Assembly (NCBI RefSeq): GCF_003334305.1
Contig: NZ_QOWS01000002.1
Length of the DNA stretch: 64,000 nucleotides
Direction: 5' to 3' (one strand)
DNA from: Escherichia coli
Lineage (GTDB): Bacteria; Pseudomonadota; Gammaproteobacteria; Enterobacterales; Enterobacteriaceae
The first letter of the stretch is position 1. Each line of letters starts with the position of its first letter. A model generated the notes under the pieces. It ran no database searches. It was not told the origin of the DNA and was given only the letters and a program-made list of their open reading frames with translations. Of the stretch, positions 13,051 to 19,090 are shown piece by piece. A program made the position numbers and the translations under genes.

Positions 13051-14051
13051 ATGCTGTAACTGAAGGAAGAAAAGTCCTCCTTGAAATCGCCGATCTTAAA
13101 GTGCACTTTGAAATCAAAGATGGCAAACAGTGGTTCTGGCAACCGCCGAAAACGCTCAAAGCCGTCGATGGTGTCACTCTTCGCCTGTATGAAGGGGAAA
13201 CATTAGGTGTGGTAGGGGAATCGGGATGCGGTAAGTCCACCTTTGCTCGCGCCATCATCGGTTTGGTCAAGGCGACCGACGGTCATGTTGCCTGGTTAGG
13301 TAAAGAGTTGCTGGGCATGAAGCCCGATGAATGGCGTGCCGTTCGCAGTGATATTCAGATGATTTTCCAGGATCCGTTGGCATCGCTAAACCCGCGTATG
13401 ACCATCGGCGAGATCATCGCTGAACCACTGCGTACTTATCATCCGAAAATGTCACGCCAGGAAGTTCGCGAGCGCGTGAAGGCGATGATGCTGAAAGTCG
13501 GGTTATTGCCTAACCTGATTAACCGCTATCCGCATGAGTTCTCCGGTGGGCAGTGCCAGCGTATCGGGATTGCTCGTGCTCTTATTCTTGAACCGAAGCT
13601 GATTATCTGCGATGAGCCGGTTTCGGCGCTGGACGTGTCAATTCAGGCGCAGGTGGTCAACCTGCTCCAGCAGCTGCAACGTGAGATGGGATTGTCATTA
13701 ATTTTTATCGCTCATGACCTGGCCGTGGTAAAACACATTTCCGATCGTGTGTTGGTGATGTATCTCGGCCATGCGGTAGAACTGGGGACCTATGATGAGG
13801 TCTACCACAATCCACTACATCCTTACACCAGGGCATTGATGTCGGCAGTCCCCATACCTGATCCGGATCTGGAGAAGAACAAAACCATCCAGTTACTGGA
13901 AGGGGAATTACCGTCGCCGATCAACCCGCCTTCCGGTTGTGTTTTCCGTACCCGTTGCCCGATTGCCGGTCCGGAGTGCGCCAAAACACGTCCTGTTCTG
14001 GAGGGGAGTTTCAGACACGCCGTTTCTTGCCTGAAAGTCGATCCGCTTTAA
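13047..14051 (+). CDS. oppF: Oligopeptide ABC transporter ATP-binding protein OppF
   Basis: 334 aa; Walker A GESGCGKS, signature FSGGQCQR; start overlaps the oppD stop (ATGA). Confidence 0.95.
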   Translation: MNAVTEGRKVLLEIADLKVHFEIKDGKQWFWQPPKTLKAVDGVTLRLYEGETLGVVGESGCGKSTFARAIIGLVKATDGHVAWLGKELLGMKPDEWRAVRSDIQMIFQDPLASLNPRMTIGEIIAEPLRTYHPKMSRQEVRERVKAMMLKVGLLPNLINRYPHEFSGGQCQRIGIARALILEPKLIICDEPVSALDVSIQAQVVNLLQQLQREMGLSLIFIAHDLAVVKHISDRVLVMYLGHAVELGTYDEVYHNPLHPYTRALMSAVPIPDPDLEKNKTIQLLEGELPSPINPPSGCVFRTRCPIAGPECAKTRPVLEGSFRHAVSCLKVDPL

Positions 14052-14060
14052 ACACAATAA

Positions 14061-14086
14061 GGGCTGACAGTTGTCAGCCCTTTTTC
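14061..14086 (+). terminator. Rho-independent terminator of the opp operon
   Basis: gggctgac-agtt-gtcagccc hairpin followed by ttttt, just 3' of the oppF stop. Confidence 0.85.
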
Positions 14087-14103
14087 ACGCCGAAAGCGAT
14101 TAT

Positions 14104-15928
<1,825 letters not shown>

Positions 15929-16070
15929 AGATTAGAAATCCTTTTGAAAGCGCATTGTTATGAGTTTACGCATATGGATTCATCTGGCAAATAAAAACGC
16001 GGGAAAAGCACTGGTCAGCGTCGGGGGCGGGGGTATAATGACCATTCTGTTATTGCATAGAGTAGTTAAC

Positions 16071-16244
16071 ATGAAGCGGAGTAGAACGGAAGTGGGGCGC
16101 TGGCGCATGCAGCGTCAGGCTAGCCGACGTAAATCGCGTTGGCTTGAGGGGCAATCGCGCCGAAATATGCGTATCCACAGCATCAGGAAGTGCATTCTAA
16201 ACAAACAGCGTAACTCGTTATTGTTTGCGATCTACAATATCTAA
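16071..16244 (+). CDS. yciY: Small highly basic protein YciY (57 aa)
   Basis: ORF trimmed to MKRSRTEVGRWRMQRQ...; matches my recollection of a small annotated K-12 ORF here; TATAAT-like hexamer about 30 bp upstream. Confidence 0.5.
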   Translation: MKRSRTEVGRWRMQRQASRRKSRWLEGQSRRNMRIHSIRKCILNKQRNSLLFAIYNI

Positions 16245-16251
16245 ATGTACT

Positions 16252-16270
16252 GGGCACCATTGCGGTGCCC
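16252..16270. terminator. Hairpin between convergent yciY and kch (candidate bidirectional terminator)
   Basis: gggcacc-attgc-ggtgccc inverted repeat between the two stops. Confidence 0.45.
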
Positions 16271-16298
16271 AATAAGTTTACTCTTTCGTCTTTAAACT

Positions 16299-17552
16299 CT
16301 ATTTTTGCACCGATTCTTTACTGTCAGCTTTCGTTTCTTGTTCATCGTTATCGCTGAAAATACCATGACCTGAGTTCAACAACATTGAAACGAGCATATC
16401 ATTATTAATCTCTTCACCGTTTAAAACTCGCGCCAGAATTTCGCTGCCAAACAGTTGCGGTGAGAGAATGATATCCGGATGTACCATCTTAATCTTATTC
16501 AGGTTTTTGCTATCACTGACGGCGAGAACTGTTTTGACATCACTGCTCATATCTTTTGCCGAGAGTACAACAAACGCGTTATCTGCATCGTTATCACTCA
16601 GCGCCAGAATGGCCCGGCATCGATCGATTCCCGCTTTCTTTAATACTGAACTGTCATTACTGTCACCGGGGATAACATCAGCGTTATCGCCTAAGCGTTG
16701 CTCAAGTTGCTTGATATCATCTTCAGGCAAGTTGCTGATAACCGTTACGTTTTGTCCGCGTTGATTCAGTTGCAGGATCGTATTGATGGCGAGAATCGAA
16801 TGTCCGCAAACAATAAAATGATCTTTACGATGCATTGTATGATTGTTTCCTTTTACAAGTTTGTTGAATCCCCCGCGGATAAGCGGACCAAAAATTGAGG
16901 TCATAGATGTGGCAAAAACGGTAATGCCGGAAATAATGACCGAAATAGTGAACAATCGTGCTGATTCAGAAACAGGGACAATATCTCCATAGCCGACGGT
17001 TGACATGGTTTCTATCGAAAAATAGAACGCGGTCATCAAACTTTCTATTCGCGGATTAAAACCTTCGCTTAAATAAAGCGCACCGTAGGTTGAGTAAAAC
17101 AGTAATGTCGTGAAACTAATAAATGCAAAAATTGTCCCGGCTGCGGCGCTACTGTGGGAGAAGTCTTTGCGCAGTATCAGCAAAAACACCAGCGTAAAAA
17201 TGCAAAATCCAATACTAAATTTCAGCCAGGGATAAAAATGCAGGGTGTAAATTAGCGCTATCAACAACAAAATGATACTGATTGCCCATGCGAGCTTTGC
17301 CCGGAACAGTAAGCCAATGGAGTTCAGGACAAGAAAGACGCCGAGCATAAATAGTGGGGCGTTTGCCAGCAAGGAGAGATCCAACTCTGAAAATGCTTTG
17401 ATATGGAAAATATCAAGCAAATTGACCGACATACCATAGATTGTTTTAAAAATAAGCAATCCATTTAAAAAGACGGCCAGCGCGAGAATGTCGTGCCGTA
17501 GGGTCACCCATAAATTTGTTGCTGTTTGTTTGAATGTAGCCCAGTGACTCAC
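16299..17552 (-). CDS. kch: Voltage-gated potassium channel Kch
   Basis: ORF trimmed to GTG start giving MSHWATFKQTATNL... (417 aa); selectivity filter TVGYGD and C-terminal RCK/TrkA domain. Confidence 0.9.
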   Translation of the reverse strand: MSHWATFKQTATNLWVTLRHDILALAVFLNGLLIFKTIYGMSVNLLDIFHIKAFSELDLSLLANAPLFMLGVFLVLNSIGLLFRAKLAWAISIILLLIALIYTLHFYPWLKFSIGFCIFTLVFLLILRKDFSHSSAAAGTIFAFISFTTLLFYSTYGALYLSEGFNPRIESLMTAFYFSIETMSTVGYGDIVPVSESARLFTISVIISGITVFATSMTSIFGPLIRGGFNKLVKGNNHTMHRKDHFIVCGHSILAINTILQLNQRGQNVTVISNLPEDDIKQLEQRLGDNADVIPGDSNDSSVLKKAGIDRCRAILALSDNDADNAFVVLSAKDMSSDVKTVLAVSDSKNLNKIKMVHPDIILSPQLFGSEILARVLNGEEINNDMLVSMLLNSGHGIFSDNDEQETKADSKESVQK

Positions 17553-17850
17553 TGATACCTCTGTAACCACAATTTTGTTTAATTATCTTAGCGTGCACAT
17601 TTTCTGAACATACATGCAGCGCGTGAATGTGTTAAACAATAGTAGATGACTTTATCGGCAGTAATCAAAGGTTTTGAGCGAGCAACTCTGCGTCAGGAAA
17701 GGGCATTTTCCTGAATATGTTCACATCATATAAAGAAATACAGATAAAGTTATTATCTGCTTGTGGTGGTGAATGCACTGACCGGCTATAAGGAAAGGCC
17801 AAACAAGAACACGGTTGCAAAAACCGTGCCCTTAAATATTGAATCTCTAT

Positions 17851-18147
17851 TCAGAACACTTTCTTAAATGGTTTCACTGAAACGTGTTCATAGACTCCTG
17901 CCGCTACGTACGGGTCAGCATCGGCCCAGGCCTGAGCTGCTTCCAGCGATTCAAATTCAGCAATAACGGTTGAGCCAGTAAATCCCGCAGCCCCTGGATC
18001 GTTACTGTCTACCGCTGGCATTGGACCAGCTGTCAACAAACGACCTTCATCATGCAGTAACTGTAAACGTGCTAAATGTGCCGGACGAACGGAAAGGCGT
18101 TTTTCGAGGCTATCAGCTTTGTCTTGAGCGTAAATAACATACAACAC
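17851..18147 (-). CDS. yciI: YciI-like protein (Dabb-type fold)
   Basis: ORF trimmed to GTG start giving (M)[17 protein letters not shown]..., 98 aa; start codon checked in sequence. Confidence 0.8.
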
Positions 18148-18370
18148 GGGCACAACTCCTTGTTCGGGAAAGTTGTAAAGTACGTTATTTGAAAGGGCGA
18201 AGATCTGCAACGGAAAGATGATGTCTTTGTTAAGACCATGCATAAATTAAGGTCAATTACGCCAAAAATGACATTTTCACTGATCCTGATCGTCTTGCCT
18301 TATTGAATATGATTGCTATTTGCATTTAAAATCGAGACCTGGTTTTTCTACTGAAATGATTATGACTTCA

Positions 18371-19090
18371 ATGACCCTTGATTTACCTCGCCGCTTCCCC
18401 TGGCCGACGTTACTTTCGGTCTGCATTCATGGTGCTGTTGTGGCGGGTCTGCTCTATACCTCGGTACATCAGGTTATTGAACTACCTGCGCCTGCGCAGC
18501 CAATTTCTGTCACGATGGTTGCGCCTGCTGATCTCGAACCGCCACAAGCCGTTCAGCCGCCACCGGAGCCGGTGGTAGAGCCAGAACCGGAACCTGAGCC
18601 GATCCCCGAACCACCAAAAGAAGCACCGGCGGTCATTGAAAAGCCGAAGCCGAAACCTAAGCCAAAACCGAAGCCGGTGAAAAAGGTACAGGAGCAGCCA
18701 AAACGCGATGTCAAACCCGTAGAGTCGCGTCCGGCATCACCGTTTGAAAATACGGCACCCGCACGCCTGACATCAAGTACGGCAACGGCTGCAACCAGCA
18801 AGCCGGTTACCAGTGTGGCTTCAGGACCACGCGCATTAAGCCGTAATCAGCCGCAGTATCCGGCACGAGCACAGGCATTGCGCATTGAAGGGCAGGTTAA
18901 AGTTAAATTTGACGTCACGCCGGATGGTCGCGTGGATAACGTACAAATCCTCTCAGCCAAGCCTGCGAACATGTTTGAGCGTGAGGTGAAAAATGCGATG
19001 CGCAGATGGCGTTATGAGCCGGGTAAGCCAGGCAGTGGGATTGTGGTGAATATCCTGTTTAAAATTAACGGCACCACCGAAATTCAGTAA
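18371..19090 (+). CDS. tonB: TonB energy transducer
   Basis: ORF trimmed to [33 protein letters not shown] (239 aa); Pro-rich (EP)n/(KP)n spacer and C-terminal TonB domain. Confidence 0.95.
18560..18690 (+). repeat. Short tandem codon repeats encoding the TonB proline-rich spacer
   Basis: Repeated gaa/gag-ccn then aag-ccn codon units encoding [12 protein letters not shown]...[12 protein letters not shown]. Confidence 0.8.

Follow-up and report, generated by a model that had tools for sequence, protein, structure and literature searches.

YciY, a conserved and translated small basic protein of Enterobacterales encoded divergently from clsA

The open reading frame (ORF) at 16071-16244 of the window, the whole 64,000-nucleotide stretch of Escherichia coli DNA analysed here, is very probably yciY standing alone as a monocistronic small gene, and no evidence counted against this identity. 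The gene is already known: it is annotated, it is represented in curated protein families and its translation has already been demonstrated. As a finding of a genome scan it therefore adds little, being sound but ordinary. The ORF and the coding features around it are as follows.

yciY, 16071-16244, plus strand: 57 codons followed by TAA (ATG at 16071, TAA at 16242-16244)
clsA, 14468-15928, minus strand: cardiolipin synthase gene, the invariant divergent neighbour of yciY
yciU, 14104-14433, minus strand: gene for a very acidic member of the HI1450/DUF440 dsDNA-mimic family, directly downstream of clsA on the same strand
kch, 16299-17552, minus strand: convergent downstream neighbour of yciY, in this place only in Escherichia
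94-aa ORF, 15960-16244, plus strand: yciY with a 37-codon N-terminal extension that is not conserved

Identity and genomic neighbourhood

A preliminary description of the locus had recognized a 57-codon, Arg- and Lys-rich ORF at these coordinates and had named it yciY. The ORF is present as described, and its translation, MKRSRTEVGRWRMQRQASRRKSRWLEGQSRRNMRIHSIRKCILNKQRNSLLFAIYNI, agrees exactly with the residues that were quoted. The name is also correct: RefSeq annotates the gene as "yciY: YciY family protein" (K-12 counterpart b4595), and the product matches the NCBIfam model NF033701 at 109.8 bits (curated cut-off, 30 bits), with residues 1-55 aligned to the 56-position model. Pfam PF26518 is assigned to all 120 of the database homologues listed. 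The labels of these two families are those of a hypothetical equivalog and an uncharacterised protein, and no function for YciY was found in the literature full text searched for yciY and b4595.

The gene is nearly universal in the species. A 421-bp query around the ORF matched 5423 of 5426 complete E. coli genomes at an identity of at least 95% (95-100%), with a query coverage of at least 80% in 5422 of the 5426, and yciY is annotated in 5422 of the 5426. The K-12 gene shows no difference from the one in the window, encoding the same 57-aa sequence at the same position between clsA and kch, with the same start codon as is given in the supplement of the ribosome profiling study discussed below. 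The basic composition is borne out by 13 Arg and 4 Lys residues against 2 Glu, which are the acidic residues of the protein. The 7.1-kDa product has a pI of 12.0 and a net charge of about +14.6 to +15, and an equal positive charge per residue is reached in only about 1.4% of the ATG-started ORF segments of 50-80 aa in the window.

We scanned one genome per species and found a YciY relative encoded in 318 species; the best 80 of these 318 loci were examined. The gene order in the window is oppF (+), yciU (-), clsA (-), yciY (+), kch (-), yciI (-) and tonB (+). The preliminary description had placed the ORF between convergent clsA and kch genes, which is wrong. Both genes lie on the minus strand and are co-directional; yciY, on the plus strand, diverges from clsA and converges on kch. 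The start of clsA is separated from the yciY ATG by 137-147 bp in all 80 Enterobacteriaceae loci, and yciY is divergent from clsA-yciU also in Rouxiella (Yersiniaceae), Morganella (Morganellaceae), a Pectobacteriaceae genome and Erwinia. The downstream neighbour varies. Only in Escherichia is it kch; most Enterobacteriaceae have yciI there, and other lineages have a gene of the MCP, YnfU-family or Rce1-like kind or an unannotated ORF. Because the downstream neighbour changes while the pairing with clsA is constant, the stable unit is yciY together with the clsA promoter region. The pairing of yciY with clsA-yciU is suggestive of a link between them, yet the gene order of this region is broadly conserved anyway.

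The surroundings of yciY show several further features. In Citrobacter and some other genomes a distant kch-like match (28-40% identity) instead lies between oppF and yciU. The gap between yciY and yciI holds variable extra genes in many loci and seems to be a recurrent insertion site; the kch-yciY gap has been used as an insertion site in a strain-engineering preprint. In Rouxiella (locus L082) a 54-aa YnfU-family gene (PF23499; 4246-4410, minus strand) lies directly downstream of yciY and convergent with it, such that two small-protein genes adjoin. Two database records carry unexpected taxon names: a contig titled 'Chryseobacterium sp. 18061' (L074) contains a typical Enterobacteriaceae yciY locus, and a protein labelled 'Listeria monocytogenes' (P0043) is a typical Enterobacteriaceae YciY sequence. 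Both are probably mislabelled or contaminated.

Coding constraint and translation

The preliminary description had cautioned that short basic ORFs also arise by chance, and had suggested that conservation of the reading frame be compared among relatives, with frame-disrupting indels as the result that would speak against a gene. Its caution is fair, in that a length of 57 codons is not by itself beyond chance, but its conservation exceeds what chance would give. In each of the 80 species loci examined the ORF starts with ATG and is intact, free of frame-disrupting indels, and its length is 57 codons throughout except in the Cedecea/Buttiauxella group, where it is 59. Variation follows the codon pattern of the annotated frame: mean column entropy at codon positions 1, 2 and 3 is 0.37, 0.22 and 1.08, and 28, 22 and 53 of the 57 columns at each position are variable. 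As Nei-Gojobori proportions, pN/pS comes to 0.17 for the annotated frame; four of the other frames give 1.5-2.5, and the antisense frame with the same wobble positions gives 0.34. For calibration, clsA in the same genomes gives 0.06. Constraint is strongest in the first part of the protein, with a pN/pS of 0.10 over codons 1-41 and 0.34 over codons 42-57. All four CGN codons are used for invariant Arg residues, for example R12, R30, R31 and R34. These alignments show that purifying selection acts on the YciY amino-acid sequence and, because the conservation is frame-specific across 80 species loci, that yciY codes for a protein. A few single-member database entries have scrambled C-termini that resemble sporadic frameshifts or sequencing errors.

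The start codon and the expression of the gene have both been addressed experimentally. The supplement of a tetracycline-inhibited ribosome profiling (TetRP) study contains the identical 57-aa ORF, labelled yciY, at K-12 coordinates 1306812-1306985, and places the start at the 57-codon ATG (PMC4909307). In the same work a chromosomal yciY-Venus translational fusion served as a positive control and gave a signal in LB and in glucose minimal medium (PMC4909307). Translation from the ATG at 16071 is thus experimentally demonstrated in the literature. The earlier statement that expression cannot be told from the sequence was too cautious, given both the clear conservation result and the translation shown by TetRP and the Venus fusion.

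These data leave next to no room for the view that the ORF is a chance occurrence or that the locus acts only as RNA, whether as a leader peptide or attenuator, a small RNA or an antisense transcript to kch. Apart from the length of the ORF, the only observation in its favour is that the first ~10 codons of yciY show less synonymous variation than the rest, which hints at an added RNA-level constraint. Against it stand the frame-specific selection, the demonstrated translation (PMC4909307), a 5' untranslated region (UTR) free of conserved structure, the lack of any co-oriented gene downstream, the restriction of kch as a neighbour to Escherichia and the lack of an Rfam match; no RNA family was found in an Rfam scan of 14000-18500 at E <= 1. 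We regard this reading as effectively refuted by the codon-level conservation. Its most specific form, a leader-peptide or attenuator upstream ORF, was rejected in its own right: the gene that follows (kch, yciI or others) is convergent, a terminator-like hairpin follows directly after the stop codon and there is no conserved 5' structure.

It is also highly improbable that the true product is the longer 94-aa form carried by many automatic annotations. An in-frame ATG at 15960 does open a 94-aa ORF, and a database cluster of this form has 330 members. However, the extension starts upstream of the conserved yciY -35 and -10 elements, the length of the clsA-yciY intergenic region changes in steps that are not multiples of three, and in other species the frame runs upstream for as few as 0-25 codons before it closes, or offers no start codon. 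The start given in the TetRP supplement is, moreover, the 57-codon ATG (PMC4909307). We therefore rejected the 94-aa ORF as an over-call that begins 5' of the yciY promoter in a frame that is closed or without a start in most species. The correct start codon of yciY can thus be given, where many databases over-call the longer form.

Codon choice within the gene shows some regularities. Five of the 13 Arg codons are rare ones (AGA, AGG, CGG and two CGA). At the start of the gene (16071-16100), 71 of 79 distinct sequences retain the rare AGA at codon 5; further on, codon 39 is AGA or AGG in 72 of the 79. The retention of these rare codons and the low variation in codons 1-10 hint, in the aligned sequences, at an extra constraint at the level of RNA or of translation rate.

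Promoter, leader and post-stop hairpin

Alignment of 81 distinct clsA-yciY intergenic sequences shows two back-to-back promoter-like sites. The elements of this region and the hairpin beyond yciY are listed below; promoter functions are inferred from consensus scans.

clsA promoter-like site, 15963-15990, minus strand: TTGCCA, 16 bp, TAAACT, back-to-back with the yciY promoter
yciY -35-like hexamer, 16012-16017, plus strand: TGGTCA
yciY -10 hexamer, 16034-16039, plus strand: perfect TATAAT, 31 nt before the ATG
Discriminator, 16040-16046, plus strand: GC-rich in relatives, with consensus G-N-C-C-S-C-T-C after TATAAT
Weak Shine-Dalgarno-like motif, 16059-16062, plus strand: AGAG, 8 nt before the ATG, with a conservation of 90% or more among the aligned intergenic sequences
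GC-rich hairpin, 16251-16271, either strand: probable bidirectional terminator for yciY (+) and kch (-), from fold z-scores and conservation

What had been described as a TATAAT-like hexamer about 30 bp upstream of the ORF is confirmed, and is a perfect TATAAT. Together with TGGTCA and the 16-bp spacer it gives 10 of 12 consensus matches. The hexamer is found in 82 of 82 distinct yciY upstream regions and lies 29-33 nt before the ATG in 81 of them; the prevailing -35 element is TGGTC[AT] with 16 bp between it and the -10 element, a spacing found in 76 of the 82. GC content averages 67% over the 7 nt that follow the -10 element, whereas the intergenic region as a whole has 41%. A perfect TATAAT also stands ahead of yciY in Rouxiella, Morganella and a Pectobacteriaceae genome, where the next letters are GTCCGCAT, AATCGCCC or GTGCGCCG. 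From the position of these elements, transcription is predicted to start near 16046-16047, with a 5' UTR of about 25 nt. We rejected a hairpin in this UTR that would sequester the Shine-Dalgarno-like motif (CTCT...AGAG), since RNAalifold found zero conserved pairs in the yciY 5' UTR across 24 species.

On the clsA side, both hexamers of the promoter-like site lie in conserved blocks, which read GAGTTTACGC and CTGGCAAATAAAAA on the plus strand. At 15930-15945 a further conserved block matches a ribosome-binding site, AAGGA. Between the -35 elements of the two divergent promoters is an A/T-rich tract, CAAATAAAAAC, that could act on either promoter as an UP-like element.

The yciY promoter has the GC-rich discriminator and the sub-optimal 16-bp spacer of stringent (rrn P1-like) promoters. 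A perfect -10 element, a 16-bp spacer and a GC-rich discriminator are the design of growth-rate-controlled promoters that are inhibited by ppGpp/DksA, such as rrnB P1, and all three are shared by yciY and rrnB P1-type promoters. The sequence TATAATGTGCGCC upstream of yciY in a Pectobacteriaceae genome resembles TATAATGCGCCACC of rrnB P1. Unlike rrnB P1, the yciY promoter has a weak -35 element (TGGTCA), and the likeness between the two is one of sequence only. On this resemblance, the yciY promoter may be under stringent-type control.

The hairpin that had been reported just downstream of the ORF is real. It has an 8-bp GC-rich stem, (T)GGGCACC/GGTGCC(CA), and a fold energy of -17.7 kcal/mol, which is 4.6 standard deviations below shuffled controls on the plus strand (z = -4.6) and 5.4 below them on the minus strand (z = -5.4). 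All 82 loci have a GC hairpin 5-11 nt beyond the yciY stop codon, irrespective of which gene follows, and this is the sole conserved RNA element near yciY. It is terminator-like, with a conserved stem (GGGCACC...GGTGCCC in 73 of the 82) and variable loops; Rouxiella has a different hairpin after the stop, followed by a T-run. A terminator scan made no call on 16251-16271, where the E. coli U-tract is poor on both strands. On its position and conservation, the hairpin is probably the yciY terminator, shared with the convergent gene, and the yciY transcript would then have its 3' end just after 16271. The near-invariance of the stem, GGGCACC(G)...(C)GGTGCCC in those 73 loci, is more conservation than a terminator stem strictly requires. 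Taken together, the alignments indicate that the predicted promoter, the AGAG motif, the ORF and the post-stop hairpin are conserved as one unit.

The YciY protein and its possible functions

AlphaFold2, run with a 33-sequence family alignment, predicts a single continuous helix over residues 5-56 with a mean pLDDT of 92. Over residues 4-41, conservation is 90% or higher at almost every position, and E7, W11, R12, R15, Q16, W24, Q28, S29 and R30 are among the invariant residues. Positions 14, 17, 18, 21 and 22, which vary, have i, i+3/4, i+7/8 spacing and fall on one stripe of the modelled helix, with constraint round the rest of its circumference, as expected if a partner largely envelops the YciY helix. 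The C-terminal 16 residues evolve faster than the rest and are more hydrophobic; the hydrophobic residues are concentrated in 35-57 (I35, I38, I42, L43, L50, L51, F52 and I54). Overall the protein is hydrophilic, with a GRAVY of -1.14 and a hydrophobic moment of at most 0.53, and it has no transmembrane segment or hydrophobic stretch of at least 18 residues. We accordingly rejected a type I toxin or a small membrane protein on the basis of the GRAVY value, the lack of a hydrophobic stretch and the lack of an Rfam match.

The family is found in Enterobacteriaceae, Yersiniaceae, Pectobacteriaceae, Erwiniaceae and Morganellaceae. A full HMM search against 1.84 billion representatives yielded 38 clusters. 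Apart from one low-complexity 819-aa match, these are in essence all small proteins that share a YciY-like core, and every named relative is from Enterobacterales. This profile search gave no link from YciY to any other family. A Pfam-A scan gave no match in the Pfam copy used, which does not include PF26518, and searches of PHROGs and PADLOC gave no match and thus no phage or defence link. Foldseek comparison of the AlphaFold2 model with the PDB also gave no match, a single helix carrying no fold information. A profile search of the PDB found only mitochondrial uS14 (E = 0.27 and 0.67, not significant), and we take this match, in the N-terminal helical region, as compositional and not as homology. 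No YciY chain is present in the PDB, despite its very many E. coli ribosome entries. The absence of YciY from all solved structures speaks against its being a stable, stoichiometric ribosomal component.

The preliminary description had suggested that the composition would fit a peptide that binds nucleic acid or the ribosome, and from the protein sequence this suggestion is plausible. Our best guess for the function of YciY is an Arg-rich helix that binds RNA or the ribosome, a specific mechanism that we infer tentatively and hold at well below even confidence. The Arg/Trp-rich N-terminal helix would bind a structured RNA, for which rRNA, the ribosome or an assembly intermediate is the most plausible candidate, and would insert into a groove as arginine-rich-motif peptides do. 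A secondary contact, with a protein or with YciY itself, would come from the 16 C-terminal residues, which are hydrophobic and more variable. The perfect -10 element, 16-bp spacer and GC-rich discriminator would tie synthesis of YciY to growth rate through ppGpp/DksA-sensitive initiation. We favour structured RNA as the target because of the composition (Arg greatly in excess of Lys, RWR motifs), because the helix is conserved nearly all round and because of the design of the promoter.

Known proteins resemble YciY in part. As in the arginine-rich-motif peptides of phage lambda N and HIV-1 Rev and Tat, its helix is dominated by Arg (13 of 57 residues, in a segment modelled as helical with a pLDDT of 92), with Trp and Gln/Asn interspersed, and RWRMQRQ..RRK.RW is compositionally like the Rev motif. 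YciY differs from lambda N, Rev and Tat in having no sequence homology to them and in being a whole free-standing protein instead of a motif in a larger one. It is similar in size (45-60 aa) and extreme pI to bL34, bL36, Sra/S22 and the N-terminal helices of uS14, but differs from small ribosomal proteins in matching none of their families, in occurring in no solved structure, in its rare Arg codons and in its restriction to Enterobacterales. Several observations count against binding to RNA or the ribosome. There is no detectable homology to an RNA-binding or ribosomal family, and YciY is absent from solved structures, many E. coli ribosome entries included. Five of the 13 Arg codons are rare, unlike those of ribosomal-protein genes. 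The only conserved genomic association is with clsA-yciU and not with translation genes, and the promoter is of stringent type by resemblance only.

A rival reading is a role at the membrane, in which the cationic Arg/Trp helix would bind anionic phospholipids (cardiolipin or phosphatidylglycerol), or ClsA itself, and modulate cardiolipin synthesis, with yciY co-controlled with clsA through the shared promoter region. In bacteria, many small proteins act as regulators of a neighbouring membrane protein. In all 80 Enterobacteriaceae loci yciY and clsA-yciU diverge, 137-147 bp apart; the pairing with clsA extends to four further Enterobacterales families, each with a different gene downstream; and the two promoter-like sites lie in a conserved block with their -35 elements about 20 bp apart. 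However, the order of genes in the region (oppF-yciU-clsA ... yciI-tonB) is conserved anyway, and selection would remove insertions from a 140-bp double-promoter region whether or not the two genes are functionally linked. The protein itself, strongly hydrophilic (GRAVY -1.14), without a transmembrane segment and with a hydrophobic moment of no more than 0.53, also fits this role poorly, and we consider it unlikely. The other gene of the divergent clsA-yciU operon raises the possibility that YciY is the basic partner of YciU, the very acidic dsDNA mimic. Their charges are opposite (about +15 for YciY, with YciU rich in Asp and Glu), and yciU is about 1.6 kb away in every yciY locus examined. 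This co-occurrence is uninformative, since every yciY locus examined also carries YciU, and the ranges of the two families do not agree: the YciY search gave only 38 clusters with named relatives all from Enterobacterales, whereas the DUF440 family reaches well beyond this order, for example to HI1450 of Haemophilus. The reported partner of HI1450 is, in addition, HU, and a YciY-YciU partnership is very improbable.

The modelled structure could also accommodate DNA binding, with YciY acting as a nucleoid-associated or bZIP-like protein whose basic N-terminal region lies on DNA and whose hydrophobic C-terminal part dimerizes. A single helix of about 52 residues, basic in its N-terminal two-thirds and with its hydrophobic residues in 35-57, is what the model shows. 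The heptad pattern is nevertheless incomplete, the predicted core positions holding K/R/H45, S49 and N/D56, and there is no homology to any DNA-binding family. Arg outnumbers Lys 13 to 4 in YciY, and an excess of Arg over Lys is more typical of RNA binders. On balance there is little chance that DNA is the target. A bolder reading is possible but doubtful: YciY would be either an unrecognised RNA- or ribosome-binding factor as old as the Enterobacterales, a single Arg-rich helix tied to growth rate by an rrn P1-like promoter, or a cationic regulator functionally coupled to clsA-yciU, its invariable partner in the genome.

Among E. coli small proteins without an assigned function, YciY is one of the more strongly constrained, with a pN/pS of 0.10 over residues 1-41 and a range of five families. 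The stringent-like promoter design, the invariant pairing with clsA and the single helix with one variable stripe provide handles for its study. If either form of this reading is true, a conserved E. coli protein without an assigned function would gain one.
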